In this document: piece by piece, positions 11,069-53,234 of the stretch
How positions within the stretch are numbered: the stretch's first letter is position 1
Layout of the letters: each line of letters starts with the position of its first letter
Translations under genes and position numbers: made by a program
Source: Candidatus Babeliales bacterium
GTDB lineage: Bacteria > Babelota > Babeliae > Babelales > RVW-14
Length of the DNA stretch: 64,000 bases
NCBI GenBank assembly: GCA_041671765.1
Contig: JBAZAX010000005.1
Span: 2,260 to 66,259 of the forward strand
Reading direction: 5' to 3'
The notes under the pieces: model-generated
Seen by the model: the letters and a program-made list of their open reading frames with translations, nothing else
Databases searched by the model: none
What the model was told of the DNA's origin: nothing

Positions 11069-11109
11069 CTAATTAATTCATGGATCCTGAAACGAGTTCA
11101 GGATGACAA
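11069..11109 (+). repeat. hairpin repeat, short form
   Basis: gctaattaattcatGGATCCTGAAacgagTTCAGGATGACAA. 8-bp stem ATCCTGAA/TTCAGGAT. Its right arm supplies the last codons and the TGA of the permease on the opposite strand. Confidence 0.85.
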
Positions 11110-12410: not shown

Positions 12411-12474
12411 TTGTCATCCTGCCGTGTCGGCCATAGCACTCCAAGTGCAACGGCTGAAACTTGATCCAGGATCT
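12411..12474 (-). repeat. hairpin repeat, long form with GC-rich core
   Basis: Minus-strand read: AGATCCTGGATCAAGTTTCAGCCGTTGCACttggaGTGCTATGGCCGACACGGCAGGATGACAA. Lies between the bioY stop and the permease ATG. Confidence 0.85.
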
Positions 12475-13254: not shown

Positions 13255-13292
13255 CTAATCCATAGATCCTGAAATAAGTTCAGGATGACAAA
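13255..13292 (+). repeat. hairpin repeat, short form
   Basis: ctaatccatAGATCCTGAAataagTTCAGGATGACAA, followed by taAGGAGttttATG of hppA. Confidence 0.85.
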
Positions 13293-17828: not shown

Positions 17829-18815
17829 TTAAAAAAATCTACGCATAACCGCCTTAAATTTCCAATACAAATCTTGTTTTATTTTTTTAAACATAGACGC
17901 AGGCCGAACCAATTTGGGATTATTTGCTATAATTTGTTGATGCAAAAGATTAAAACGCTCACCCGTTTTTGTTATATCTTCAAACTCTTTTTCAATCAAC
18001 ATTCCCAAATTATTTAATTTTTTATTATAAAAAATTCCATCCCACTTTTTTAAATAATTTTTGGTGTCATGATTATATTTCTCATAATTGGTTTTTCTGA
18101 CATCAACATTTGCATGAGGATAATGCTCAACAAACGATTCAGGACTTTCTATGCATTCATACCCGGCATGCCACATCTTTAGGCACAAATCTCCATCTCC
18201 GTTATAAAAAAAGAAATTATCCTCGTCGATATAATCGACGTCTTTCAACGCCTGGTTTAGATACATACCATGATTAACATAAATTTTGTTACCAAGAGTA
18301 CAACATACATAATATTTTTCTTGCTGGGACCAATTTCTCCAGTAAAAAGCCACGGCACCTATTTTTTTGCCATGCTGCAAATTTTCTTCAAATAAATTAA
18401 TTCCATTAACAATAGCGCCGGGCACAACCAAACAATCATCACTTAGCATGCAAACAAATTTGCCTTGTACAGACTTGAACGCAAGGTTCATAAAATAACC
18501 CCACGACCTGCGTTCAATATTTTTTCCCAGCCACTCTCCACGATTATGCTGAATAATTGTTATGATATCTTTTTGTTCTACAAGCCACTGAAGAGTCCCA
18601 TCTACTGAACCTCCATCAACAACAATTATTTCATGAGATAAATCTTTACATTCGGTTCGAATGCTATCAATTGTAAGTTTTAGAAAATCCAAACGATTAT
18701 ATGAACCCAAAACTACTGATATAAGCTTTTTGTACTCTGAAATATTATTTTTTTTTACTTTATTAAAAAACACTTTCCAATCTTTCACTTTTTTAAAAAA
18801 ATATTCGATATACAT
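17829..18815 (-). CDS. family 2 glycosyltransferase
   Basis: ISVVLGSYNRLDFL...IIVVDGGSVDGT... gives a GT-A N-terminal layout. Contains an A9 tract near codon 20. Confidence 0.8.
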   Translation of the reverse strand: MYIEYFFKKVKDWKVFFNKVKKNNISEYKKLISVVLGSYNRLDFLKLTIDSIRTECKDLSHEIIVVDGGSVDGTLQWLVEQKDIITIIQHNRGEWLGKNIERRSWGYFMNLAFKSVQGKFVCMLSDDCLVVPGAIVNGINLFEENLQHGKKIGAVAFYWRNWSQQEKYYVCCTLGNKIYVNHGMYLNQALKDVDYIDEDNFFFYNGDGDLCLKMWHAGYECIESPESFVEHYPHANVDVRKTNYEKYNHDTKNYLKKWDGIFYNKKLNNLGMLIEKEFEDITKTGERFNLLHQQIIANNPKLVRPASMFKKIKQDLYWKFKAVMRRFF

Positions 18816-18922
18816 TTAAATCAAAGCTCTATAAATTTCAAATTTAAGCGTACTAAATTAAAATCAAAATTTAAACTGGAGATATAGACAAAGCATTTTA
18901 AATAAACACAGACACTCATAGT

Positions 18923-19001
18923 TGTCGCACCGGCCTTCGCCGGTGTCCAGGCTAAACTAAATCTGGATCCCAGCCTTCGCCGGGAAGACAAGAGGCTATG
19001 C
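18923..19001 (+). repeat. GC-rich composite repeat (modules C1 + C2)
   Basis: GTCGCACCGGCcttcGCCGGTGTCCAGGCTAAACT...CTGGATCCCAGCCTTCGCCGGGAAGACAAGAGGCTATGC. Co-linear with 43201-43250 plus 43342-43410. Confidence 0.8.
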
Positions 19002-19072
19002 AATACATGATTTCTTTAGTGTCTATTTAACTTGTTTTGCCTATAGTAACGGGATATAGCCTGGAGATAGTA

Positions 19073-20845
19073 ATGGTACAATCGCATATAAAAAACAACT
19101 ATAAACTGCTTTTATCTATCACTCTTTTTTCAATAATATTCTGCATCCTGGGTCTAACCTGGACACACTGGTGGTTCAATGGAGGGGATGACTTCAATGC
19201 AATACTTTCCGTTTACAAAATTAAAAACTGGAAAGATCTTTTTGATGCAATGATACAAGGAAATACCGGATATTTAACCAATCCAACAAATTTCATAGAC
19301 CAATCCTATCAGCCAAGCTTTCTTTCTGTTTATTTCCGCCCACTGCATGTACTATTCTTAACGGTCGAATATTGGTTATTTGGAACAAATGCATACCTAT
19401 ATTTATTAACAAACGTGTTTTTTCATGCAATCAACACAGTTCTTTTGTTTAATATATTTTTGTGGATTACAAATTATATGCCCGCATTGATTGCAGTCCT
19501 AATTTTTGCATTTCATCCTCAAATTGCATTCAGATTTGGGGCAGTTGCCAACATCCAGTACTACATAAACTTAACACTTATACTTTTTGCGACAATGCTT
19601 TTTAAAAAATTTTTGGACACTGGAAAATGGCGTTATAACATTTTTTCGGCATTATTTCTTACAACAGCTCTATTTATAAGAGAGACAATGCTGGTTCTGC
19701 CCGCAATAGTTTTCATGAGTGCTTATTTGTACAAAAACAAACAACTCAGCACTAGATCTTTTTTTGCGCGGTTCTATGAACTGCTAAAAATAACGCTTCC
19801 ATCAATCCTTGCAGCCTGTACATATATATTAGTCAGAGCATATAATTATCCGTTAAAACTTTCACAACTCACAAACCACGCTCCACTTTCAAGCACCCCA
19901 ATTTTAAGCACACTTAAAAACCGCATTCCGGAACTCAAAGTTATAATTTATGACTTATTCTGTTTATCATGGCTACCATGGGGATGCAAAACAATTCGAA
20001 CGATTATTTTACTGCTAATTTTTTCATCTCTTTTTGCACTTTTTATTAAAACAAAAAACAAACTGCCTGTTTTATTTTGCCTTATATTTGCAATCATTTT
20101 ACTCTGGCCCAGCCTGATTGTTATCAACAACCCAAGATACCTGTATGAAGCCTATCCATTTTTTTTAGCAGGAATATTACTGCTATTCGCTGGATGCACA
20201 TTCAGGCGCAAACAAATCAAACCCATAATAATATCTATGGGAGTACTTTTTTCAATTTTATTAATATTATTTTCAGTAGAAAATTTTGCCACAAGAACAA
20301 AAAAAATGCATATATTTTCATCTGAGCTAAAACAACTTGTCGTAAACCCACAAATTAAAAACCGAACTTTATGTGTTTTTGCCTACCCTTTTGACGGACT
20401 TGGTGAACACTTTGCTTCAATTTTATGGGTAATGCTTGATAATCCCAATATCCCAATTTATTTTGATTCTCAAACAATGATTACACAACACGATTCAAAT
20501 CTATTTAAAAACAAAAAATGGCGACTATGTGCCTCTGATTATTTTGATAAAAATTACCTAAAAATTACAATTCTAGAAAATGGTTTTAGATTAACGTCTC
20601 TTGATCCACAGAAAGTTGCATTCTACCCACAAGAAACATCTTTATCAATTGGTAAAACAATCGTACACAAAACGGAACTTGTTCATGGTGAAAATTTAAC
20701 CACAGATTTAACACTCACAATTGATGAATCAATCTTGCAACAAAAACCACTTTTTATTTGGTGGGATTATGAAAAACAAAATTTTGTCATTTATGATAAA
20801 CTTAACCGTATGAACAAATTTATTTCCACCCAAGTCCATTTATAA
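19073..20845 (+). CDS. polytopic membrane protein, GT-C (PMT/ArnT-like) glycosyltransferase suspected; paralog of 35009-36799
   Basis: More than 10 predicted TM helices. YFRPLHVLFLTVEYWLFGTNAYLYLLTNVFFHAINT resembles the first-loop region of PMT_2/TMTC-type GT-C enzymes. ATG 19073 follows GGAG; the track start 19037 is TTG. Confidence 0.65.
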   Translation: MVQSHIKNNYKLLLSITLFSIIFCILGLTWTHWWFNGGDDFNAILSVYKIKNWKDLFDAMIQGNTGYLTNPTNFIDQSYQPSFLSVYFRPLHVLFLTVEYWLFGTNAYLYLLTNVFFHAINTVLLFNIFLWITNYMPALIAVLIFAFHPQIAFRFGAVANIQYYINLTLILFATMLFKKFLDTGKWRYNIFSALFLTTALFIRETMLVLPAIVFMSAYLYKNKQLSTRSFFARFYELLKITLPSILAACTYILVRAYNYPLKLSQLTNHAPLSSTPILSTLKNRIPELKVIIYDLFCLSWLPWGCKTIRTIILLLIFSSLFALFIKTKNKLPVLFCLIFAIILLWPSLIVINNPRYLYEAYPFFLAGILLLFAGCTFRRKQIKPIIISMGVLFSILLILFSVENFATRTKKMHIFSSELKQLVVNPQIKNRTLCVFAYPFDGLGEHFASILWVMLDNPNIPIYFDSQTMITQHDSNLFKNKKWRLCASDYFDKNYLKITILENGFRLTSLDPQKVAFYPQETSLSIGKTIVHKTELVHGENLTTDLTLTIDESILQQKPLFIWWDYEKQNFVIYDKLNRMNKFISTQVHL

Positions 20846-33532: not shown

Positions 33533-34990
33533 CTAAAATTGAAAGTAAATAAATTTTGAAGCACCAAGCATGCCGAATAAAATAATGCTCCAAATAAGTA
33601 GATAATATAAAGTCCAGCGAATGTATGATGGCAAAGCATTAACTCGTGCTATCAGATCATTACGATGTGCCCACAACTGGATGGCTTCAAGCGTTATAAT
33701 TGCAATTATAGCAATCAAGAAATCCACTTTTGATCGTCCACAAAAAATTGAATCCAGTCCACCACCTCGAGAGATACCCCATGGACCGCAAAATATTTTT
33801 TTTATAATGAGAAAAACATCGGAAATACTTTCTGCTCTGAAAAAAATCCACGCAAAGCAGGTAAGCCCAAAAGTTATAACAACCTGCAATGATTTGTGTA
33901 GCGCAGGATACATATCAAGCTTAATATAATAAACAAAAGCATTTCGCCACGTTTTAGTTGCAGCACCAACAATAAGATAAACTCCATTGAGCGCACCCCA
34001 AATTACAAAAGTCCAACTGGCTCCATGCCAAAGACCGCTAAGAAGAAAAGTAATAAAAAGATTTCTGTAAACTTTCATAACAGAAACACGATTTCCGCCA
34101 AGCGGGATGTAAACATAATCGCGAAACCATTGAGAAAGTGAAATGTGCCAACATCGCCAAAATTCTGAAATTGATTTTGAAGCATAAGGTCGATCAAAGT
34201 TGATCATTAATTTGAAACCCATAACCTGTGCTGCACCAAGCGCAATGTCAGAATAACCGGAAAAATCGCAATAAATTTGATATGCGAAAAATATTGTAGC
34301 CACAATAAGTGAAGTACCCGAATGGACAGCTGGCTGCGTATAAATATTATTTACAAATAATGCTAGCCTATCCGCAATGACCAGCTTTTTGAAAAATCCC
34401 CATGCCATCAATTTTAACCCATCAGTCACACGTTGATAATCAAAATTATGTTTTTCATAAAACTGATGTACCAAATTTTGTGGCCGTTCAATGGGACCAG
34501 CTACGAGCTGGGGATAAAACATCACATAAAGAGAGTATATTCCAAAATGCCGCTCCGCCTTTTGCCTGCCAAAATAAACTTCTATTGTATAACTCATGGC
34601 TTGAAACGTGTGAAATGACAACCCGATTGGCAAAATAATATTTAACTCCGGAATTGGGTTGGTAAAACCAAATAGGGACGCCAACCCTGAAACACTGTTA
34701 TTAAAAAAATTAAAATATTTAAAAAATCCCAAAATCGATAAATTTGAAACTAAGCTAAGAAACAAAAAAAGTTTTCTCTTGTTTCCCGATGCATTTTCAA
34801 TAAGAATTCCTGCAATATAATCAATAATTATCGTAAAAAATAAAATCAAAATATAAATTGGGATAAACGACATGTAGAAAATGCAGCTTGCAACCAACAA
34901 CATAAGCCATCGCCACTTATGCGGCAAGATGAAATACAAAGTCGTTACGATTGGGAAAAAAATCAGAAATTCAAGCGAATTAAAAAGCAT
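33533..34990 (-). CDS. membrane-bound O-acyltransferase (MBOAT; AlgI/DltB/PatA-like)
   Basis: 485 aa, polytopic. WRCWHISLSQWFRDYVYIPLGGNR carries the conserved MBOAT His region. Confidence 0.9.
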   Translation of the reverse strand: MLFNSLEFLIFFPIVTTLYFILPHKWRWLMLLVASCIFYMSFIPIYILILFFTIIIDYIAGILIENASGNKRKLFLFLSLVSNLSILGFFKYFNFFNNSVSGLASLFGFTNPIPELNIILPIGLSFHTFQAMSYTIEVYFGRQKAERHFGIYSLYVMFYPQLVAGPIERPQNLVHQFYEKHNFDYQRVTDGLKLMAWGFFKKLVIADRLALFVNNIYTQPAVHSGTSLIVATIFFAYQIYCDFSGYSDIALGAAQVMGFKLMINFDRPYASKSISEFWRCWHISLSQWFRDYVYIPLGGNRVSVMKVYRNLFITFLLSGLWHGASWTFVIWGALNGVYLIVGAATKTWRNAFVYYIKLDMYPALHKSLQVVITFGLTCFAWIFFRAESISDVFLIIKKIFCGPWGISRGGGLDSIFCGRSKVDFLIAIIAIITLEAIQLWAHRNDLIARVNALPSYIRWTLYYLLIWSIILFGMLGASKFIYFQF

Positions 34991-35008
34991 TGTTATTTTA
35001 ATTTTAGC

Positions 35009-36799
35009 CTAAGTTGCACTATTTAAAACGACAAATTTACTACTTTCATAATCCCATGTAAGAAATTTAGCATCATGATGAAAATATTCAGCATCTTTAA
35101 AAATAACTGAAATATCATAAATTTTATTTGACTGAAATGGAACAATTATAGAATTGTCTTCACTATGAATGTAGATGTTATGACGACCATAAGGAAAATC
35201 ATCATAATTGTGCTGGTCATCAAAAACAATGTTGCAAAAAGGCTTATCATAGCTAAACCATAATTTATCTTTATCAGTGGTAATAAATCTAAAAGAATTT
35301 GCACCTGTTCTAATTATCAAATTATCTTTAATGGGCATAAAACTGTGTATCCTAATTCTACTATCACAATAACAATCAATTGCAACCCTACTTATCCCAT
35401 ATAATTCAATAGCTTGAGGCAAACTCATCCAATGATACATTGTAAATGGTAAGCTAAAAATAAAAAACGGCGTGTCTTGCAAAGCTTTCCCTACGGACGT
35501 TTTAAGCTCCAAAATAGGATAAAAAGTGCTTTGCAAATGTTTGAAAGCACGCTGCCGTTGCATATTTAAAAAAAATAAATTATATGCAATCATAAAAGCA
35601 AGCACAACAGCACCACAATATTTAGCTAAATGGTATTTTCTTAACCATGTAAATTTGAAAAGCGCAATAAACATCAAAATAAATGAAATCGAAGCTTCAT
35701 AAAAAGTTCGGTCATTTTGGCCACCATAGCCACAAATGAATATGGGCCAGAAAAGCAGTGCTGTAAAAAAAGCTAAGAGTAAAATTAACTTTTTTTTGGT
35801 ACTGGTAAAAAAAAGTATAAATGGAATAGAAAGAGTAAAAATTTTTATAAATCGATAAAGCCACAAAAATTTATGTTGATCAAAAATGTAATAAACACTG
35901 TACAAAGGATGAAAACAACTCAATAAATAAAGATACAACACATGAATTGTATTCATCGATAAAATATTAACTGAAAAATAATTCCCTAATCCCACACTCG
36001 AAAAAACAATTGAATATGAAATTTGCCTCATGAAAAAATAGACTAAAATCGTTAATCCAAAACCTATCACTATCTTTAACTGATCCAATATTCTTTGAAA
36101 TTTATAATATTGAGACCGCTCATATAAATTCATAATAAATATAGCCATTAATGGAAAAACAATAAAAGTCTCTCTTACGCCCAATGAAAGAAAGAAAAAT
36201 AGGTAAGAGGCTAAAGGCAACATTGTTTTACTATGAATATTCCTTATTTTTTTTATTAAAAAAACAGCTGCCAAAATAGCAAAAAAAGTCGTAAAAATAT
36301 GTTGCTGACAATCCCACTTTCCAATAAAACAAAATGATGGATGAAAAGCATAAAACAATGAAAACAAAATTGCAAAAAAATTACCCGTAAAAGGAATAAT
36401 AAAATAACAAAGTATGGATGTGTTGAGCGAATGGAAAAACATTAAAAACATGAAATGCATGTACGCATTTAAACCAAATAGACTATATTCAAAAAAATAC
36501 AAAACTAAACACATAGGTCTATAATAAACAGAAAAAAATGTTTGCCGCCATATCTCAAATGGGTGAAGCAATGACCTGTATGTATCAAGCGATCCGTGAA
36601 TAAAAAAATCTAAAAAATCTTTAATTGATTTTACTTTATAACACCTAAAAAGTTGAACATAATCTTCCCCATCAAAATACCACTGCGGATTCATTAATAC
36701 AAAAACTAAAAAAACAACCCCCAATATAAATAATGAAATAATTTTTCTTGAATTTTTTTTTATAAATTCTTTATACAAAACAGGCATGAGATCTTCCAT
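35009..36799 (-). CDS. polytopic membrane protein, GT-C (PMT/ArnT-like) suspected; paralog of 19073-20845
   Basis: YYRPMCLVLYFFEYSLFGLNAYMHFMFLMFFHSLNT aligns with the same block in 19073-20845. Its ATG shares one base with the upstream gene's TAA (TAATG). An A9 tract lies at about codons 12-14. Confidence 0.65.
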   Translation of the reverse strand: MEDLMPVLYKEFIKKNSRKIISLFILGVVFLVFVLMNPQWYFDGEDYVQLFRCYKVKSIKDFLDFFIHGSLDTYRSLLHPFEIWRQTFFSVYYRPMCLVLYFFEYSLFGLNAYMHFMFLMFFHSLNTSILCYFIIPFTGNFFAILFSLFYAFHPSFCFIGKWDCQQHIFTTFFAILAAVFLIKKIRNIHSKTMLPLASYLFFFLSLGVRETFIVFPLMAIFIMNLYERSQYYKFQRILDQLKIVIGFGLTILVYFFMRQISYSIVFSSVGLGNYFSVNILSMNTIHVLYLYLLSCFHPLYSVYYIFDQHKFLWLYRFIKIFTLSIPFILFFTSTKKKLILLLAFFTALLFWPIFICGYGGQNDRTFYEASISFILMFIALFKFTWLRKYHLAKYCGAVVLAFMIAYNLFFLNMQRQRAFKHLQSTFYPILELKTSVGKALQDTPFFIFSLPFTMYHWMSLPQAIELYGISRVAIDCYCDSRIRIHSFMPIKDNLIIRTGANSFRFITTDKDKLWFSYDKPFCNIVFDDQHNYDDFPYGRHNIYIHSEDNSIIVPFQSNKIYDISVIFKDAEYFHHDAKFLTWDYESSKFVVLNSAT

Positions 36800-37560
36800 T
36801 AGGATTTATTAATAGTTTTTTGCTTATATACACGACCCGCAAATGATCCAAAACAATCAAGTCGATCAAATTTAAATTCTTTTCGGTTGGCGTAAAAAAA
36901 ATTTTTAATATCCAAGTAGCTACAGCACCACGTTGCATCAGCATCAGCACTAACACTTACTTCTGGGGGAAGCGGAACAACTTTGAGCATATAAGGTTTC
37001 TTAATAATTCGTTTTGATATACAAAAAAACGTTATTTTTAAGAACATGTAGATGCTTCTACAAACACCCCCCTCTGTAAACGGGGTTAGGTGAAGCTTTT
37101 TCCCCTTAATCTTGTCAATAATAATGTTTTTGTACATACGTGGACGATGGTAATCAGGGGCATATAAATAAAAATAACCATCGTCTTTAAGAAATTTTAA
37201 TTTGTAATCAATAAATTCGCCAATATCATCAACATGCTCGGCCACCGTATAAGAAATAACAACATCATATTTTTCAACATGAGATTCAAATTCTTTTTGT
37301 GTAAACAATGCTCCCTCAAGTCCAAGTCGCTCTTTACCCACATTCACTAATGTCTCATTAATTTCAACACCATAGGCATTTTTAAATCCAAATTGGCGCA
37401 ACACTTTAACTAGACTCCCAACTCCAGCACCAACATCCAAGATAATTGCATCTTTTGGTATATTATTTTGTTTTAAAAATAATAATGCCCACATAAAATA
37501 TACCTCGTCATGTCTAAATAATTCATTAATATATGCAGGATTATCATACCAAAGCTTCAT
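36799..37560 (-). CDS. class I SAM-dependent methyltransferase
   Basis: ILDVGAGVGSLVKVL, YDVVISYTVAEHV. ATG 37560 (MKLWYDN) is preferred; the longer track ORF would overlap the fcl 3-prime end. Confidence 0.75.
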   Translation of the reverse strand: MKLWYDNPAYINELFRHDEVYFMWALLFLKQNNIPKDAIILDVGAGVGSLVKVLRQFGFKNAYGVEINETLVNVGKERLGLEGALFTQKEFESHVEKYDVVISYTVAEHVDDIGEFIDYKLKFLKDDGYFYLYAPDYHRPRMYKNIIIDKIKGKKLHLTPFTEGGVCRSIYMFLKITFFCISKRIIKKPYMLKVVPLPPEVSVSADADATWCCSYLDIKNFFYANRKEFKFDRLDCFGSFAGRVYKQKTINKS

Positions 37561-37597
37561 ACTATTTCCTTTGCGTAACTCAAAGCTTATTATTACG

Positions 37598-38791
37598 TTA
37601 CAACACACCTTCCTTGAGACAAGTGCAGTACCACTCATAAACACTTCTAATGCCAAACTCAAGAGTGATATTTGCTTTCCACCCTAATTTTGAAATCTTG
37701 CAAACATCAAGCAGCTTTCTTGGTGTTCCATCTGAACTAGCACAATCAAATTTAATTTCTCCATTAAATCCGACAACATTTTTAATTATCTGTGCAAGCT
37801 CGGAAATTTTTAGGTCCACTCCAACGCCAATGTTAATACACTCACCCAGATCTGAAAAATCATATTTATTCATGAGAAACAGTAGCGCTAAGACTAAATC
37901 ATCCACATGTAAAAATTCACGATAGGCAGCGCCTGTTCCCCATAGATTTAGAGTCGTTGCAGTTATGCCAAACTTTGCAAGTAAAGACTGGATATCTGAA
38001 TCGCTAAAAGCTTCAATATATTTCTTCTGTAACTCGCATCCTTCGACAGGCTCCCAGCCTTCGCTTTGGGTAGCTTCGGCGGACACGGCAGGACGAGCGG
38101 CCGAACCATCCGTCGTAGACTTGGCGTAGACGGACGCGCCAGATTTCAGAAGAGGCAAGCCAAATTTTTTAAAATCAGATCTGATACTTACAAAATCTTT
38201 AATCGCAAGCAACTTGGCCAGATGAAATTTTCTGATCATAGCCGGTAAAACATGCGCCGTTTCAAGATTAAAATTATCATTTGGACCGTAAAGATTTGTA
38301 GGCATCACAGAGATAAAATTTGTTCCATACTGTTCATTAAAATATCTACAAAGTTTAAGTGCAGAAATTTTTGCGATGGCATAAGCTTCGTTAGTTGGTT
38401 CTAGTGAACCGGAAAGTAAATATTCTTCTTTTAACGGCTGAGGGGCATTTTTTGGATAGATGCAGGAAGACCCAAGATTAAGTAATTTTTCAACACCAAA
38501 TTTATGTGAGGCAGAAATAACATTTGCAGAGATCATTAAATTGTCATAAATAAAATCGGCTTTTTGTGCATTGTTTGCCCAAATTCCACCAACTTTTGCT
38601 GCCGCTAGAAAAACATATTCAGGACGATTTTCTTGAAAAAAAGATTCGACTTGCGATTGAGATCTTAAATCAAGATCTTGAATCTCTTTTGTAATAATAT
38701 TTTTATATCCATGGGTTTTCAAGGCTCTTAGAATTGAGGATCCAACCAAACCGGTATGCCCAGCTACATAAATTTTAGAATCAATATGCAT
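37598..38791 (-). CDS. fcl: GDP-L-fucose synthase carrying a GC-rich in-frame insertion
   Basis: IYVAGHTGLVGSS, GSSCIYPK, YAIAK, GTGAAYREFLHVDD. 397 aa, compared with about 320 aa for E. coli-type Fcl. Confidence 0.9.
   Translation of the reverse strand: MHIDSKIYVAGHTGLVGSSILRALKTHGYKNIITKEIQDLDLRSQSQVESFFQENRPEYVFLAAAKVGGIWANNAQKADFIYDNLMISANVISASHKFGVEKLLNLGSSCIYPKNAPQPLKEEYLLSGSLEPTNEAYAIAKISALKLCRYFNEQYGTNFISVMPTNLYGPNDNFNLETAHVLPAMIRKFHLAKLLAIKDFVSIRSDFKKFGLPLLKSGASVYAKSTTDGSAARPAVSAEATQSEGWEPVEGCELQKKYIEAFSDSDIQSLLAKFGITATTLNLWGTGAAYREFLHVDDLVLALLFLMNKYDFSDLGECINIGVGVDLKISELAQIIKNVVGFNGEIKFDCASSDGTPRKLLDVCKISKLGWKANITLEFGIRSVYEWYCTCLKEGVL
38033..38151. repeat. GC-rich mosaic repeat block inside fcl (in frame)
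   Basis: Contains CCCAGCCTTCGC, GGCGGACACGGCAGGAC and, reverse-complemented, GCCAAGTCTACGACGGATGG. These modules are shared with 18971, 12415/44775 and 43366. Encodes SGASVYAKSTTDGSAARPAVSAEATQSEGWEPVEGCE. Confidence 0.8.
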
Positions 38792-38805: not shown

Positions 38806-39963
38806 CTAGAGATAAGCTTCTTTCATTCCCTGGTGCCAGGTTACAGTATGAGATGTGTATAAAAAGTTTTTATTTTTACAAATATCAATGCCCTGCCCAA
38901 CTGGTTGAAGGCCGGCGAATTTTAAATCGTAATCAACCATAATTTTTACAAGTTCATCGAAAGTCACTCGTGGTGACCAACATAAAATATCTTTTGCTTT
39001 AGAAATATCTGCTTGAAGGCGTTCGACTTCCGTTGGACGGAAATATCTTGGATCAACTTCGACAATTATATCTCCGGGCTTTAAAATTCCGGACCACATT
39101 GAGCTCAAATTTTTTATAATTCCAATCTCCTCAACACCTGATCCAACCCATTCAAGTTCAACTCCTGCGTAAGCAAACGATTTTTCAACAAATTCACGCA
39201 CTGGCACACTTTTACCTGTACCTATTACAAAATCACCCGGCTTATTTTGTTGCATCATCAACCACATTGCCTCAACATATTCAGGCGCAAAACCCCAATC
39301 ACGCTTGGCATTAAGATTGCCAAGATAAAGTTTGGTTTGCCTCTTGAGAAGCATATTTGCAATCGCCATTGTTATTTTTCTGGTAACAAATGTTTCTCCA
39401 CGTCTTGGGCTCTCGTGATTAAATAAAATTCCATTGCTTGCCGCAATTCTATAAGCTTCGCGATAATTAACAGTTATCCAGTAAGAATAAACTTTAGCGG
39501 CCGCATATGGACTGCGTGGATAAAAAGCTGTCTCTTCACTTTGAGGCGCCGGAGATGCTCCAAACATCTCAGACGAAGAGGCTTGATAAAATTTTGCATC
39601 GCTTTTATATCTGCGAATAGCCTCAAGAACTCTTAAAGTTCCAAGCCCTGTTACATCACCTGTAAATTCAGGCATTTGGAACGAAACTTTTACATGAGAT
39701 TGAGCACCAAGATTATAAATCTCGTCCGGCTGAACTCTACTGACAATATCATTAATCACACTGCTGTCTAAAAGATCGCCGTAGTGTAAAAAAAATCTTG
39801 TGTTTAATTCATGCGGATCAACATATATGTGGTCAATTCGCTGAGTATTAAATGTCGATGATTTACGAATCATACCATGAACTTCATAACCTTTGGAAAG
39901 AAGGAATTCTGCCAAATATGAACCGTCTTGACCTGTTATTCCGGTTATAAGCGCTTTTCTCAT
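38806..39963 (-). CDS. gmd: GDP-mannose 4,6-dehydratase
   Basis: [54 protein letters not shown]. Confidence 0.95.
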
Positions 39964-39984
39964 TTTTATCTCTCTTTTATTTTT

Positions 39985-40068
39985 GCTGTGCCCGCCATAG
40001 CCTTGGCGACGGCTGGGTCATTCTGGGCCCTGTCCTGAACTTGATTCAGGATTGATTCAGGATCTATG
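39985..40068 (-). repeat. hairpin repeat, long form (rearranged)
   Basis: Minus-strand read: CATAGATCCTGAATCAATCCTGAATCAAGTTCAGGACAGGGCCCAGAATGACCCAGCCGTCGCCAAGGCTATGGCGGGCACAGC. Lies between the ABC exporter stop and the gmd ATG. Confidence 0.8.
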
Positions 40069-40078
40069 CCTTTTATAA

Positions 40079-41872
40079 TCAAAGATTACTAGAAGCTAAA
40101 TTCTGCGTCACTTGCCCGGCAATATTATTTCTAACTAACTGAATTTGTCCATCTGAAACTTTGTAAACAATATCGCATTTCTCTATCGTCGTTAAACGAT
40201 GAGCAATAACAATCAAAGTTTTATCTTCATTAACTTTATAAATTTCATTCATTATAAGATCTTCTGTCTTACTATCAAGAGCAGAAGTTGCTTCATCAAG
40301 AACCAACATTTCAGGATCACCGTACAAGGCCCGGGCAATTGCAATTCGTTGTTTCTGCCCTCCACTTAATTTTATTCCGGCCTCCCCAACCATTGTATGT
40401 AAGCCCTCTTGGGCAAATAAAAAATCATAAATATTAGATTTTTCAAGAACATGGATCAATTTTTGCTCATCATATACACGTCCAAATACAACATTTTCTG
40501 CAACTGTACCATCAAACAAATAAATTTGCTGCGGAATATAACCAATTTTAGATCGCCAATCACGTAAATTATCATATGTTAATATTTGACCATCAATTAA
40601 AATTTGGCCATCGCATACCCGCAAAATCCCCATAATCAAATCAGCCAATGTACTTTTGCCAGAACCACTTGGGCCAACAAATGCAACCCTTTGCCCTTTG
40701 TAAATTGTAAGATTTGTTTTATCCAGAATTAATTTGGAATTTTTATTATCCAAGGATCCTGAAACAAGTTCAGGATGACAAACGGGCTCATTGTAATAAA
40801 ACGTTAAATTTTTCAGTTCTATTTTGTTTCCGAAAGAAATACTTTCATTTCCCAAAATTTCGGGTTTTGTCTTAAGATATTCGTACAATTTACCAACGGA
40901 TGCCTTATTAAAAATTATCTGATTGTAGCTAGCTAAAACTTTATTAATGGATGGTAAAAATCGATAAAGCGCAAGTGCATATACGGAAACAATTGGAATA
41001 ATAAAAGCAGGATCGTGATAAACAAAAATTACGTAAATTACCATTAAAACAAGAATTAGAAAGCCTAAAGTTTCTAAAAAAAATCTGGGTAAACTTTGTA
41101 ATATGTTATTAAATACGTTTGCTTTTAAGACTCCATTATTTGATGTCGCGAATCGATTAACAAATGATTCTTTGTTTCCATGTAACTTAATTAATTTGAA
41201 ATTCCAAAACGCCTCTGAAAATACTTTACACATATCTTCCATATTTCTCTGGTTGACTCGTCCAGCATCTGAAAGTTTTTTAGAAAAAATTTTTACAACA
41301 AAAAAAACGATCCCCACTAAAAAAATTGTCAATGAAAACGTCATTTTTAAATTAACCCAAAGAAGCATACTGTAGATACATATGAAAGTTAAAATCTCTG
41401 ACAATAAATTTAAAATCCCAAGACAAACGCTAGCAAGTGCGTTGCAATCACTAAAAAGAGCCTGCGACACATGTGCTGAATTGTTAGCAGTAAAATCGCT
41501 GTAATAAAAACTTAAAAAATCGGAATATACTCTCAACGCAGTTGCTCTACCCTTTCCCACAGCAAAACCACTAGTTGCAAAAATATGAAAAACATTTAAA
41601 ACTGCCCTTAAAATATACAAAATAGCAACGGTAAATCCCAAAAAAAGAATAAATTTACTTGGGCTGGAAAATCCAAAAAATGAATTAAAGTACTTATAAT
41701 ATCGTGTTTGTTCAATAAAATTAAAATTGGTAACGGTTGAGATAAAAAACATCATCGCACTAATGCTGATGCTTTCAAAAATGGAAACTATAAAAGATAA
41801 GATAAATAATAAAACAAAAACCTTTTTGTCTTTTTTTGAAAGCAAACTAAAAACCTGCTTTAAAAAATTCAT
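40079..41872 (-). CDS. fused TMD-NBD ABC exporter (MsbA/PglK-like) with a hairpin-repeat insertion in the NBD
   Basis: Six N-terminal TM helices. Walker A GPSGSGKST, signature LSGGQKQR, Walker B LVLDEATSALD. ATG 41872 is preferred over TTG 41902. Confidence 0.85.
   Translation of the reverse strand: MNFLKQVFSLLSKKDKKVFVLLFILSFIVSIFESISISAMMFFISTVTNFNFIEQTRYYKYFNSFFGFSSPSKFILFLGFTVAILYILRAVLNVFHIFATSGFAVGKGRATALRVYSDFLSFYYSDFTANNSAHVSQALFSDCNALASVCLGILNLLSEILTFICIYSMLLWVNLKMTFSLTIFLVGIVFFVVKIFSKKLSDAGRVNQRNMEDMCKVFSEAFWNFKLIKLHGNKESFVNRFATSNNGVLKANVFNNILQSLPRFFLETLGFLILVLMVIYVIFVYHDPAFIIPIVSVYALALYRFLPSINKVLASYNQIIFNKASVGKLYEYLKTKPEILGNESISFGNKIELKNLTFYYNEPVCHPELVSGSLDNKNSKLILDKTNLTIYKGQRVAFVGPSGSGKSTLADLIMGILRVCDGQILIDGQILTYDNLRDWRSKIGYIPQQIYLFDGTVAENVVFGRVYDEQKLIHVLEKSNIYDFLFAQEGLHTMVGEAGIKLSGGQKQRIAIARALYGDPEMLVLDEATSALDSKTEDLIMNEIYKVNEDKTLIVIAHRLTTIEKCDIVYKVSDGQIQLVRNNIAGQVTQNLASSNL
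40754..40782 (+). repeat. hairpin repeat, short form, inside the ABC exporter CDS (antisense to the gene, in frame)
   Basis: GGATCCTGAAacaagTTCAGGATGACAA. Read on the gene strand it encodes CHPELVSGS. Confidence 0.85.
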
Positions 41873-42007
41873 TATTCTCTTTTCTCTACAATAGTTTGAC
41901 AAACGTCCTTTTGAATGAAAAAATCTGTTGTGTAATCTTATTGAATGCTAACTTATTTAACTAAAATGTAAAGGAAGGAGAGTTCATTCAGAACTCTGAA
42001 TAAGATC

Positions 42008-43138
42008 ATGAACACAGAAAACAAAAAGATTCTGAATCAAGTTTCGGATGATAAAAGTAAAGAATCTAAAAAAATTTTAGTAACGGGTGGAGCAGGATTT
42101 CTTGGAAGCAATTTATGTCGCAAGCTTCTTGAACTTGGCCACCAGGTAATTGCTGTTGATAATTTGAGTACAGGAAGACTTGATAATATTCAAGATTTAA
42201 CACAAATCAAAAATTTTAGTTTTATTAAACATGACATAATTTATCCCATAAATTTTATCCAAAATCAAGCCCGCCGTCCTTCGGGCGATGGTTCGATACG
42301 CGCACTACGTGCGCACTCACCACGAGCGGGGCTATTTAATCCGCTCATCCTGAGTGTTTTGCGAAGCCATGCTGAGCAAAATGTATCGAAGGACATAGAC
42401 TGGATATTTAATTTTGCTTGTCCCGCATCCCCGCCTGCATACCAAAGTGATCCGATTCAAACAATAAAAACAAGCTTTTTGGGAATGTTGAACATGCTTG
42501 AACTTGCCAAAAAAAACAATGCACGAATTATGCAAGCATCAACAAGTGAAGTTTATGGCGATCCGGAGGAACATCCTCAAAAAGAAACTTACTGGGGACA
42601 CGTAAATCCAATTGGAATTAGATCATGTTATGATGAGGGAAAACGTAGCGCTGAGTCACTAATTTTTGATTATCACAGAGCATACAAAACTGATATAAAG
42701 GTTATTAGAATATTCAACACTTACGGGCCGGGAATGGATCCACTGGACGGTCGAGTTGTAAGTAATTTTATAATTCAGGCGTTGAATAATCAGCCAATAA
42801 CAATGTACGGTGACGGCAAACAAACACGATCATTCTGCTATGTTGATGATCTTATAAATGGGATCATAAAAATGATGCAGACAGACTATGGAATTACGGG
42901 ACCTGTTAATTTGGGAAATCCAAAAGAGTTTACATTACTTGAGCTTGCACAAAAAGTTTTAAATTTAACCGGCAGTAAATCTAAAATAGTATTTGAACAA
43001 CTACCTCAGGACGACCCCAAACGCCGTCGCCCGGACATAACTTTGGCAAAGCAATTATTAGACTGGAACCCGGAAATCACACTTGATGTTGGCCTTGAGA
43101 AAACAATTAAATATTTTGCAGGAATAAATGTTAAATAA
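42008..43138 (+). CDS. UDP-glucuronate decarboxylase (UDP-xylose synthase) with a GC-rich in-frame insertion
   Basis: [43 protein letters not shown]. Confidence 0.9.
42267..42392. repeat. GC-rich block inside the UDP-xylose synthase CDS (in frame)
   Basis: caagcccgccgtccttcgggcgatgg...GCGCACtacGTGCGC...gcTCATCCTGAGtgttttGCGAAGccatgctgagcaaaatgtaTCGAAGGAc. Shares the TCATCCTGA and TCGAAGGA motifs with the other blocks. Encodes [41 protein letters not shown]. Confidence 0.7.
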
Positions 43139-43200
43139 CACGAGCTCAAGAATTAAATATTGCTTTATGAAAGCTACTATAACGCATGGAAGTTACTTTA

Positions 43201-43250
43201 CCGTCGCCCCGGCGAAGGCCGGGGTCCAGCCTCAACTCCAATCCCTGCAT
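43201..43250 (+). repeat. GC-rich repeat module C1
   Basis: CCGTCGCCCCGGCgaagGCCGGGGTCCAGCCTCAACTCC. The same flanks as 18923-18955, with the loop inverted and one stem pair changed. Confidence 0.8.
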
Positions 43251-43341
43251 CTATTTTTTGAGAAATTCATCACCGCAAATAACAATCAAACAAAGCCAAA
43301 TCAGATACTCAAAAACTTTTTTATATATCCACAGACTAAAA

Positions 43342-43475
43342 CCTGGATCCCGGCCTTCCGACTTCGCCAAGGCTACGACGGACAAGTCGCCGGGACGACC
43401 CAGGCTACGCATAAAGCTATCAGCCGTCGCCCATGTGGCTATGGCCGACAGGCGCCGGACACGGCCAAGGAGAAT
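43342..43475 (+). repeat. GC-rich repeat modules C2 + core B
   Basis: CCTGGATCCCGGCCTTCCGACTTCGCCAAGGCTACGACGGACAAGTCGCCGGGACGACCCAGGCTACGC...CAGCCGTCGCCcatgtGGCTATGGCCGACAGGCGCCGGACACGGCC. Confidence 0.8.
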
Positions 43476-43534
43476 GCGGTTGGCATTATTACAGTAGGTT
43501 ACGATAACAAATTAAGCAACCTGGAGCGCTTCTC

Positions 43535-44743
43535 ATGAAAGTAGTCGTATCTGCAGGTGGTCGATTTCATGCAATCAATCTTGCTCAGCAGCTAAATAAG
43601 AAACGCTGCCTACAAAAATTATATTCTTTTAGTTTCACCAAATCTGACCAGCCTAAAATAGACAAAAATCATGGCACAGGTATAAGTTTGGTTAAAACAA
43701 TTAACTCGTGTAAATTTTTGGATATGGCATTCCAAAAACTACGACTTGCCCATTTTATTAACCCATCAATTTTTAACTCTTTTAAAGATAATTTATTTGA
43801 TTCTCTGGTTGCGCGTGAAATTAAAAAGCTTGAACACATTGATATTTTTACAGGTTGGGCAAATTATTCTTTAAAATGTCTTGCTCAGGCAAAAAAGGTT
43901 GGCGCTAAAACTATAATCGAGTCCGGGTCATGCCACATCAAAGAACAGCTGATATTACTTTCGCATGAATATGAAAAGTGGGGGGTAAAGTTTAGGCCTA
44001 TTTATCAGCCGGTTATAGATAAGATGGAGCAAGAGTATAACCAAGCAGATTTTATCATGACACTATCGGACTTTTCTTACCAAAGCTTTATCAAACACGG
44101 AATAAATCCCAAAAAAATTTTAAAGACCCCATGTGGAATCGATGTCGATTTTTTTCAAACAGAAGAAACGTTGCCACGTCAAGGCACGAAATTCAGAGTA
44201 ATTTTTGTCGGCATGATAAGTCTGCGCAAGGGCATACCATACTTAATTGAAGCCTGGAATAAGTTAGATCTCCCCAAAAATTCAACAGAATTAGTTTTGG
44301 TTGGAAATATTCAAAAAGATATGTATCAAGTTTTAAAAAAATTAGAGATAAAAAAGAATGTTAATTTTTTTGGATCTTGCAGCAGAGATGATTTAAAAAA
44401 ACTTTATCAAGAATCAGATGTCTTTGTTTTGCCATCTGTTGAAGATGGGTTTGGAATGGTGATAGGCGAAGCAATGGCATGCGAATTGCCTGTAATTTGT
44501 TCAAAAAATACCGGCGCAAATGATATTATTCAAGACGGTAAACATGGATTTTTGGTGCAAGCACAAAACACTGAAGCTCTGGCTGAGAAAATTTTATGGT
44601 GCTACCAAAATCCGGAACCAAGCAAAGAGATGGGAAATTTGGGTAAAAATAAAATTCTTGATTTTAGCTGGGATAATTACGGAAATAATGTTTTTGAGAT
44701 TTATCAAAATATTATGCGGGGCAGTACAAATTATAGATCCTGA
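43535..44743 (+). CDS. family 4 glycosyltransferase
   Basis: VFVLPSVEDGFGMVIGEAMACELPVICS (EX7E region). The stop codon lies inside a repeat arm. Confidence 0.85.
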   Translation: MKVVVSAGGRFHAINLAQQLNKKRCLQKLYSFSFTKSDQPKIDKNHGTGISLVKTINSCKFLDMAFQKLRLAHFINPSIFNSFKDNLFDSLVAREIKKLEHIDIFTGWANYSLKCLAQAKKVGAKTIIESGSCHIKEQLILLSHEYEKWGVKFRPIYQPVIDKMEQEYNQADFIMTLSDFSYQSFIKHGINPKKILKTPCGIDVDFFQTEETLPRQGTKFRVIFVGMISLRKGIPYLIEAWNKLDLPKNSTELVLVGNIQKDMYQVLKKLEIKKNVNFFGSCSRDDLKKLYQESDVFVLPSVEDGFGMVIGEAMACELPVICSKNTGANDIIQDGKHGFLVQAQNTEALAEKILWCYQNPEPSKEMGNLGKNKILDFSWDNYGNNVFEIYQNIMRGSTNYRS

Positions 44744-44792
44744 ATCAAGTTCCAGCCGTCGCTGAAGCTATGGCTGACACGCAGGATGACAA
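44732..44792 (+). repeat. hairpin repeat, long form with GC-rich core
   Basis: tatAGATCCTGAATCAAGTTCCAGCCGTCGCtgaaGCTATGGCTGACACGCAGGATGACAA. The left arm holds the TGA of the GT4 gene; the right arm holds the ATG at 44786. Confidence 0.85.
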
Positions 44793-53198: not shown

Positions 53199-53234
53199 CT
53201 AATCCATGGATCCTGAAATAAATTCAGGATGACA
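53199..53234 (+). repeat. hairpin repeat, short form
   Basis: ctaatccatGGATCCTGAAataaaTTCAGGATGACA. Confidence 0.85.

Follow-up and report, generated by a model that had tools for sequence, protein, structure and literature searches.

In-frame palindromic selfish DNA within housekeeping genes is best known from Rickettsia. As summarized in reviews (PMC2229807, PMC10969869) of the original description (Ogata et al. 2000), the Rickettsia palindromic elements (RPEs) are palindromic sequences of about 105-160 nt that lie in frame in housekeeping genes, and the RPE-bearing guanylate kinase of Rickettsia has been reported to be translated and active (PMC2229807). [quoted passage not shown] Repetitive extragenic palindromes and bacterial interspersed mosaic elements (REP/BIME) are GC-rich imperfect palindromes arranged in variable mosaics, which are located outside genes, between convergent or co-oriented neighbours, and are associated with REP-associated tyrosine (RAYT) transposases. 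Here we analyzed a 64,000-nt stretch (hereafter, the window) of contig JBAZAX010000005.1 from a Candidatus Babeliales bacterium, in which a GC-rich block lies in frame within the gene for GDP-L-fucose synthase (fcl). This block is very probably the degraded copy of a palindromic mobile element that is non-autonomous, restricted to the lineage, MITE-like and a functional analogue of the RPEs. The nearest named relatives of the PolA protein come from candidate division TM6, Babeliales and Dependentiae (57-66% identity), and the named relatives of Fcl agree.

The fcl ORF (37598-38791, minus strand) encodes 397 residues, compared with 321 in the E. coli Fcl chains in the Protein Data Bank (PDB). 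An original prediction, made from the sequence alone, had proposed that a repeat was absorbed in frame into this conserved enzyme in the manner of RPEs, and the proposal was borne out by empty sites in relatives, by the presence of the same element in unrelated genes and by a predicted disordered loop at the site. Its descriptions of an ORF longer than the E. coli type, of a GC-rich block and of an open frame with intact GSSCIYPK and YAIAK motifs were likewise accurate. The element-derived insert occupies 135 nt (38018-38152, minus strand) and encodes residues 214-258 (LLKSGASVYAKSTTDGSAARPAVSAEATQSEGWEPVEGCELQKKY), as delimited by an nhmmer profile, an empty-site DNA alignment, GC content and the confidence profile of a structural model. 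Its GC content is 57.8%, versus 35.3% in the remainder of fcl. A 100-nt composition scan peaked at 64% near 38050-38149, with about 35% on either side, and 40-nt windows with at least 60% GC merged into an island at 38031-38162. The nhmmer profile, built from 14 copies, found the window copy at 38017-38156 (E 2.4e-32).

The ortholog alignment and the structural model that the original prediction had proposed as checks both agreed with an insertion. The alignment placed it at 38018-38152 and showed that eight close Fcl orthologs (352-383 aa, 78-89% amino acid identity) lack the insert and read FGLP-KNYCSN-FETLSDSD at the site. One of the eight, from the close strain L005, is 95-100% identical to the window at the DNA level over the adjacent gmd gene and the 5' two-thirds of fcl; its empty site measures 18 nt versus 135 nt in the window, a net gain of 117 nt or 39 codons. 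The same site is filled by longer homologous inserts in two other Fcl homologs, P0002 (433 aa) and P0003 (430 aa). Furthermore, an identical protein and an identical 176-nt stretch across the element (38000-38175) are present in four other public contigs from four assembly records, which are 99.9-100% identical to the window across 5.6-15 kb. Thus, the insert is not an assembly artefact.

The host gene has the family profile, the Ser-Tyr-Lys triad with the Cys/His acid-base pair and the pairing with gmd that characterize a GDP-L-fucose synthase, here of the long form. The protein matches NCBIfam NF047922 with an E value of 5e-127, although the score of 423 bits falls under the 500-bit cutoff because the insert breaks the profile match in two. 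PDB matches obtained with phmmer include 7anh and E. coli 1e6u, and the HMMER alignment with the long-form 7anh covers query residues 2-209 and 266-389, skipping the middle. The catalytic residues S108, C110, Y137, K141 and H180 occupy columns that are invariant in an alignment of 119 sequences, as do the GSSCIYPK and YAIAK motifs. Directly upstream, gmd (GDP-mannose 4,6-dehydratase; 38806-39963, minus strand; TIGR01472, E 2e-163, above the curated cutoff) sets the GDP-fucose pathway context. Not all of the extra length is due to the repeat. The about 90 residues that had been regarded as additional were confirmed as a count, with 89 residues from HLAK to LWGTG, but about 50 of them belong to a native helical excursion that every long-form Fcl protein of 350-360 aa possesses, and the repeat contributes only 39 residues net (45 element-encoded). 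Accordingly, the element accounts for about 39 of the 77 residues by which the protein exceeds E. coli Fcl.

An AlphaFold2 model of Fcl built with 119 homologs had a predicted template modelling score (pTM) of 0.85 and a mean predicted local distance difference test (pLDDT) score of 87, with nearly all residues outside the insert above 90. Values below 50 were limited to residues 216-254, within the insert, and to residues 70-72, whereas the helices beside the insert (200-210 and 252-273) were modelled confidently. In the predicted structure the insert thus has the position of a surface loop compatible with the fold, as in RPEs. Foldseek searches with the model returned Fcl proteins and GDP-heptose C4 reductases with target-normalised TM-scores (TMt) of 0.87-0.93; the nearest solved structures are GDP-heptose C4 reductases of C. 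jejuni, so that the exact substrate of the enzyme can only be presumed. Most likely the insert is kept in the transcript and in the protein, the latter then bearing a disordered surface loop of 39-45 residues. The conserved catalytic residues and confidently predicted fold suggest that the enzyme is intact, and the effect of the insert on it is probably neutral or slightly deleterious.

The window by itself is insufficient to define a repeat family. A blastn-short comparison of the block with the window gave only matches of 12-18 nt (E 0.03-0.45), none longer than 18 nt, which are suggestive at most. The original prediction had regarded the block as a mosaic of modules known from intergenic repeats. 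The match that it reported at 18969 (CCCAGCCTTCGC) is exact; those near 12415 (GGACACGGCAGGA, found at 12417-12429 on the minus strand) and at 43366 (GCCAAGTCTACGACGGA) are present with one mismatch each; but GGACACGGCAGGA has no match with up to one mismatch at 44775, where the similarity needs an indel. Modules are indeed shared with other repeat families, but the block is one discrete modular element with terminal inverted repeats rather than an ad hoc mosaic.

The decisive evidence lies outside the window. About 16 copies of an element bounded by AGACTTCTTCTGAAAC...GTTTCAGAAGAGATCT were found in three related genomes, within unrelated genes as well as between genes. At least 10 copies lie in the MFD01231.bin.2.11 genome (the source of L007) and five in 21 kb of L008, but there is only one full copy in the 64-kb window. 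The L008 copies reside in fcl, in an ABC transporter gene and, twice, in the gene for a protein that has 374 aa in L005, and those of the L007 genome in an MnmA-like gene, a DUF167 gene, genes for secreted or membrane proteins and intergenic regions. Protein alignments showed clean in-frame insertions both in the L008 ABC transporter (647 aa versus 581 aa, a difference of 66 aa) and at the two sites in the L008 counterpart of the 374-aa protein. The canonical element is 159 nt (53 codons) long, with terminal inverted repeats of 14-16 nt enclosing nested GC-rich hairpin modules. In the copy alignment the modules follow in the order AGACTTCTTCTGAAAC; CCGGCGCGTCACC-loop-GGTGATGGT; TCGACAAGCTCACCACGAGCGCGCC-loop-GGCGCTCGTCC; a variable module, TGCCGTGCCCGGCGTAGCCACGAAGGGCGAAGCCTGGG or variants of it; AGCCTGTCGAAGGATGCGAG; and TTTCAGAAGAGATCT. 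In the consensus fold the termini pair with each other, TTCGACAAGCTC pairs with GAGCCTGTCGAA, and two internal hairpins form; a canonical copy folds with -65.9 kcal/mol (z = -2.6). The intact left repeat AGACTTCTTCTGAAAC is present in the copies of L008, L013 and L015.

Comparison of filled and empty sites suggests how the element inserts. In the L008 ABC transporter gene, AAT stands on either side of the element versus a single AAT in L005 (AAT|...|AAT), and in L008 fcl the element is flanked by ATT and ATC (ATT|...|ATC). Thus, insertion probably generates a 3-bp target duplication. With the right-end pattern GTCGAAGGATGCGARTNNMAGAA as query, a scan of 185,579 species-representative genomes yielded nine copies, all in MFD01231.bin.2.11, and otherwise a single chance match in a Pseudomonadales metagenome-assembled genome; no Rickettsia genome was among the matches. 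An exhaustive HMMER search with the peptide (P0121) matched 12 of 1.84 billion representative proteins, several of which are unrelated low-complexity sequences. A word-indexed protein search with the 53-aa consensus peptide gave only two candidates, such an index being ill-suited to short queries. Judged by these searches, the element is lineage-restricted.

The element resembles RPEs in its terminal inverted repeats and single open reading frame, in its occurrence both between genes and, at fold-compatible sites, in frame in conserved protein genes, where it is always inserted in one frame, and in that neither has a known mobilizing enzyme. The hosts are also alike: RPEs occur in obligate intracellular bacteria, and the phylum of the element described here has intracellular parasites of protists as its known members. 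However, the two differ in taxonomy (Dependentiae/TM6 versus Alphaproteobacteria) and in composition, the Dependentiae element being GC-rich (58-65%) in a genome with about 34% GC. It also has an overt modular build, in which modules come and go and recur in other element families, and an apparent 3-bp target duplication, whereas for RPEs the duplication is listed as unknown. We therefore treat it as an analogue rather than a member of the RPEs, the likeness being one of behaviour. As in MITEs, its length is below about 300 bp (159 nt in canonical form, 135 nt in the window) and no transposase gene is present, the only open frame encoding a low-complexity peptide; the terminal repeats pair in the consensus fold, and multiple dispersed copies exist in a genome. 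Unlike most MITE families, it is GC-rich, appears to duplicate 3 bp and is read through by an ORF in most sampled copies. With REP/BIME it has in common GC-rich imperfect palindromes in changing combinations, the mosaic character that the original prediction had noticed. In contrast to REP/BIME, it is bounded by terminal inverted repeats and resides in coding sequence, the window copy being intragenic. The family is most likely a new RPE-like or MITE-like one of Dependentiae, presumably sequence-distinct from and functionally parallel to the Rickettsia elements, with its copies carried as tolerated passengers. A literature search of incomplete coverage returned no prior description of such elements in Dependentiae/TM6, which is absence of evidence only. 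The characterized members of Dependentiae are obligate intracellular parasites, so that the persistence of such elements inside genes may be a more general consequence of weak selection in small intracellular populations.

All parts of the window copy could be assigned on the minus strand by alignment with the other copies. The left terminal inverted repeat (CTTCTGAAATC, 38142-38152) is truncated, the outer AGA(C)T being missing together with the native KNYCS codons. Module 1 (38102-38141) consists of the TGGCGCGTC anchor and a variant hairpin, TCCGTC-TACGCCAAGTCTAC-GACGGA, followed by TGGTTCG; this hairpin stands in place of the canonical TCACC-loop-GGTGA, and its loop sequence GCCAAGTCTACGACGGA is the one common to the intergenic repeat at 43366. 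Module 2 is a remnant (38091-38101), about 31 nt (ACAAGCTCACCACGAGCGCGCC-loop-G) being deleted relative to canonical copies, which takes out the inner palindrome arm. Module 3 (TGCCGTGTCCGCCGAAGCTACCCAAAGCGAAGGCTGGG, 38053-38090) has a related intergenic fragment at 12414-12463 (nhmmer E 4e-4). Module 4 (AGCCTGTCGAAGGATGCGAG, 38033-38052), which encodes EPVEGCE, is the most conserved core and nearly invariant in all copies. The right terminal inverted repeat is TTACAGAAGAAATAT (38018-38032), canonically TTTCAGAAGAGATCT. Of the terminal repeats, the window copy thus retains only CTTCTGAAATC and GAGTTACAGAAG, and this degraded copy has probably lost its mobility by now. It shares the left anchor, the right half and the GAGTTACAGAAG end with the fcl copy of L007, which indicates that a single old insertion gave rise to the orthologous fcl copies of the window, L007 and L008. 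The fcl copy was thus probably not inserted in this genome.

All 14 analyzed copies are free of stop codons in one sense frame, the 'GAS' frame (LLKPGASP.GDGS...EPVEGCEFQKRS), and the other two sense frames contain one to three stops in all but one case. Every copy inside an ORF is in the sense orientation and in the 'GAS' frame, about eight of them in mid-gene, two near the C-terminus and two at the N-terminus; an ORF runs through about 10-12 of the 14 sampled copies. Intragenic length variants differ by 3, 18, 30, 36, 54 or 69 nt, all multiples of three, and the sole variant that is not a multiple of three (+5 nt, in L011) is intergenic. The evident constraint is for the frame to stay open and the length to be divisible by three. 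Variable alignment columns are spread evenly over the codon positions (17/49, 20/51 and 20/51), and the Fcl protein of L007 contains translations of one 57-nt module in two different frames. Thus, no selection on the peptide itself is seen.

The fcl copy also coincides with a break in divergence between the window and L005. Identity to L005 drops from about 96% to about 81% exactly at the element, ranging from 72% to 88% onward, and remains low or absent through the methyltransferase gene (36799-37662) and the ORF for a 596-aa multi-pass membrane protein (35009-36799) before reaching about 95.5% again at 34990. The divergent cassette (34990-38017, minus strand) thus comprises the 3' third of fcl and these two genes, and matches L008 at about 87%. 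It represents a strain-level replacement in a surface-polysaccharide locus, L005 being otherwise about 96% identical. The simplest reading suggested by these identities is a cassette exchange by homologous recombination in which an insert-bearing allele was imported, and such an import would explain why this genome, so near to the insert-free strain L005, has an insert in common with more distant lineages.

A history consistent with these observations would begin with insertion at a codon boundary in the sense orientation, which, together with the 3-bp duplication, would add 54 codons and no stop; such insertions would survive only at sites that put up with a flexible hydrophilic loop. A copy was very probably gained by a common ancestor of several related lineages of Dependentiae, in the variable helical excursion that is present only in long-form Fcl. 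Each lineage then remodelled this copy by gain and loss of modules, every change being a multiple of 3 nt; in the window, five native codons, the inner arm and part of the left repeat were lost. Homologous recombination most likely brought the insert-bearing 3' part of fcl, together with the downstream glycan-modification genes, into the present genome, with a crossover that would fall at or just upstream of the element.

Several other explanations of the insert were weighed against a tolerated mobile element. The family might be specifically adapted to coding sequence, given its 159 nt or 53 codons, its 3-bp duplication, its one stop-free sense frame for a disordered hydrophilic peptide and its survival in the sense orientation only, and its copies in conserved genes might also serve as portable recombination junctions or as barriers delimiting the exchange of glycan-biosynthesis cassettes between Dependentiae strains. 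The coincidence of the identity drop with the fcl copy would fit a recombination junction; the ABC transporter insert, tested as a second case, does not coincide with a divergence junction, and we regard this proposal as rather improbable. Alternatively, the insert could have been exapted, its peptide acting in Fcl and the other hosts as a flexible linker, an interaction or localization motif or a regulatory loop, and being kept by selection at the protein level. This would account for the single orientation and frame of all intragenic copies, for a recognizable peptide (LLKPGASP.GDGS...EPVEGCEFQK), for the lack of antisense in-frame copies among those seen, though an antisense frame is open in about half of the copies, and for the persistence of the insert in fcl of three diverged lineages. 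However, the variable sites show no excess at third positions, one module is read in two frames within a single protein, the lineage-specific gain or loss of whole modules alters the peptide drastically, eight close relatives manage without the insert, the pLDDT is below 50 throughout it, and the host proteins are functionally unrelated; exaptation is thus unlikely.

It is more doubtful still that the element is removed before the mature protein forms, by intron-like RNA excision, translational bypass or protein splicing, leaving an Fcl without the loop. The strong terminal stem of the canonical element would bring both ends together, but an Rfam scan of the whole window at the gathering threshold gave no match, hence no intron or ribozyme, and at 45 aa the insert is too short for an intein, family searches returning only families of the short-chain dehydrogenase, epimerase or dehydratase type. 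We therefore rejected inteins and self-splicing introns as candidates. In addition, one open frame and lengths in multiples of three within genes, relaxed intergenically, are predicted by translation and needless under excision, and in Rickettsia the insert of the RPE-containing Gmk is retained on translation (Delihas review, PMC2229807). Finally, the block could be a native lineage-specific loop or low-complexity expansion of Fcl, the site being the most variable region of long-form Fcl with lengths that differ widely among homologs, or else an assembly chimera. Near-identical DNA in unrelated genes and between genes, the empty site in a relative with a 96%-identical 5' flank, the jump in GC from 35% to 58%, the identical insert in five contigs of several assemblies and the orthologous copies in two independent metagenome-assembled genomes contradict these readings. 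Both were rejected in view of the dispersed copies, empty sites and multiple contigs, and we consider them barely credible.

Some observations nevertheless weigh against a mobile, neutrally tolerated element as the origin of the block. No transposase, autonomous partner or longer unit with these terminal repeats was found in the about 200 kb of loci examined, so that mobility is deduced from the distribution of the copies only. The 3-bp duplication is based on two comparisons of filled and empty sites and on consistent flanks, other copies matching at only two of the three bases. The window copy itself lacks a target duplication, its left junction being deleted and its left end not intact, and it folds no better than shuffled sequence (z = -1.06). 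Only one case, that of fcl, links the element to a recombination breakpoint. Moreover, the restriction of intragenic copies to the sense orientation, although about half of all copies have an open antisense frame, hints at a constraint beyond the absence of stop codons, a bias that pure neutrality leaves unexplained.

Other repeat insertions occur in genes of the window and of the clade. The ABC transporter ORF at 40079-41902 (minus strand) contains a 48-nt in-frame palindromic insert (VCHPELVSGSLDNKNS, 40736-40783) that is not present in the L005 ortholog, and L008 holds a full 195-nt element at the same codon. The core of the 48-nt insert is the palindrome TCCTGAA-N5-TTCAGGA, which recurs, mostly in intergenic regions, at 11085-11103, 13267-13285, 40033-40051 and 53211-53229; in all, the window contains six matches with up to two mismatches versus 0.04 expected. 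An epimerase/UXS-like ORF (42008-43138, plus strand) carries a GC-rich in-frame insert in the sense orientation at 42255-42393, with a net gain of about 31 aa relative to L005. This insert is a partial relative of the fcl element (nhmmer E 6e-9) and has 92% identity to a segment of a different gene in L008 (18948-19072). Epimerase inserts occupy one site in the window and L008 and another in L005, where a GC-rich insert of 21 aa is found near the N-terminus. The L008 protein encoded at 18612-20123 has three separate element insertions and 503 aa, versus 374 aa in L005. In Fcl proteins of more distant Dependentiae (P0011, P0018, P0024 and P0031), the same loop holds GC-rich inserts that are unrelated. 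The loops in Fcl, the ABC transporter and the epimerase have thus been hit repeatedly by different elements, which marks them as insertion-tolerant sites.

Between genes, GC-rich repeat islands stand out from the genome (about 34% GC) at 12413-12460, 18906-19002, 39978-40045 and 44746-44791. The first of these (12414-12463 in the nhmmer match) is the module 3 fragment of the fcl element family, and the island at 18906-19002 contains two hairpins of the CCGGC-CTTC-GCCGG type. Such insertions also affect annotation, inflating protein lengths, splitting profile matches and creating spurious ORFs. An example of the last is the 136-aa ORF at 43128-43538, which is called as a gene publicly, has no Pfam match and corresponds to a cluster of GC-rich hairpin repeats of about 415 nt (e.g. 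CCCCGGC-GAAG-GCCGGGG); the cluster is absent from syntenic L005, and the gene is thus probably spurious. The methyltransferase downstream has a longest ORF, with a putative TTG start at 37662, that overlaps the 3' end of fcl by 65 nt (37598-37662), and public gene calls disagree there, with a 279-aa call overlapping fcl on L002 and separate ORFs of 73 aa and 182 aa on L001.

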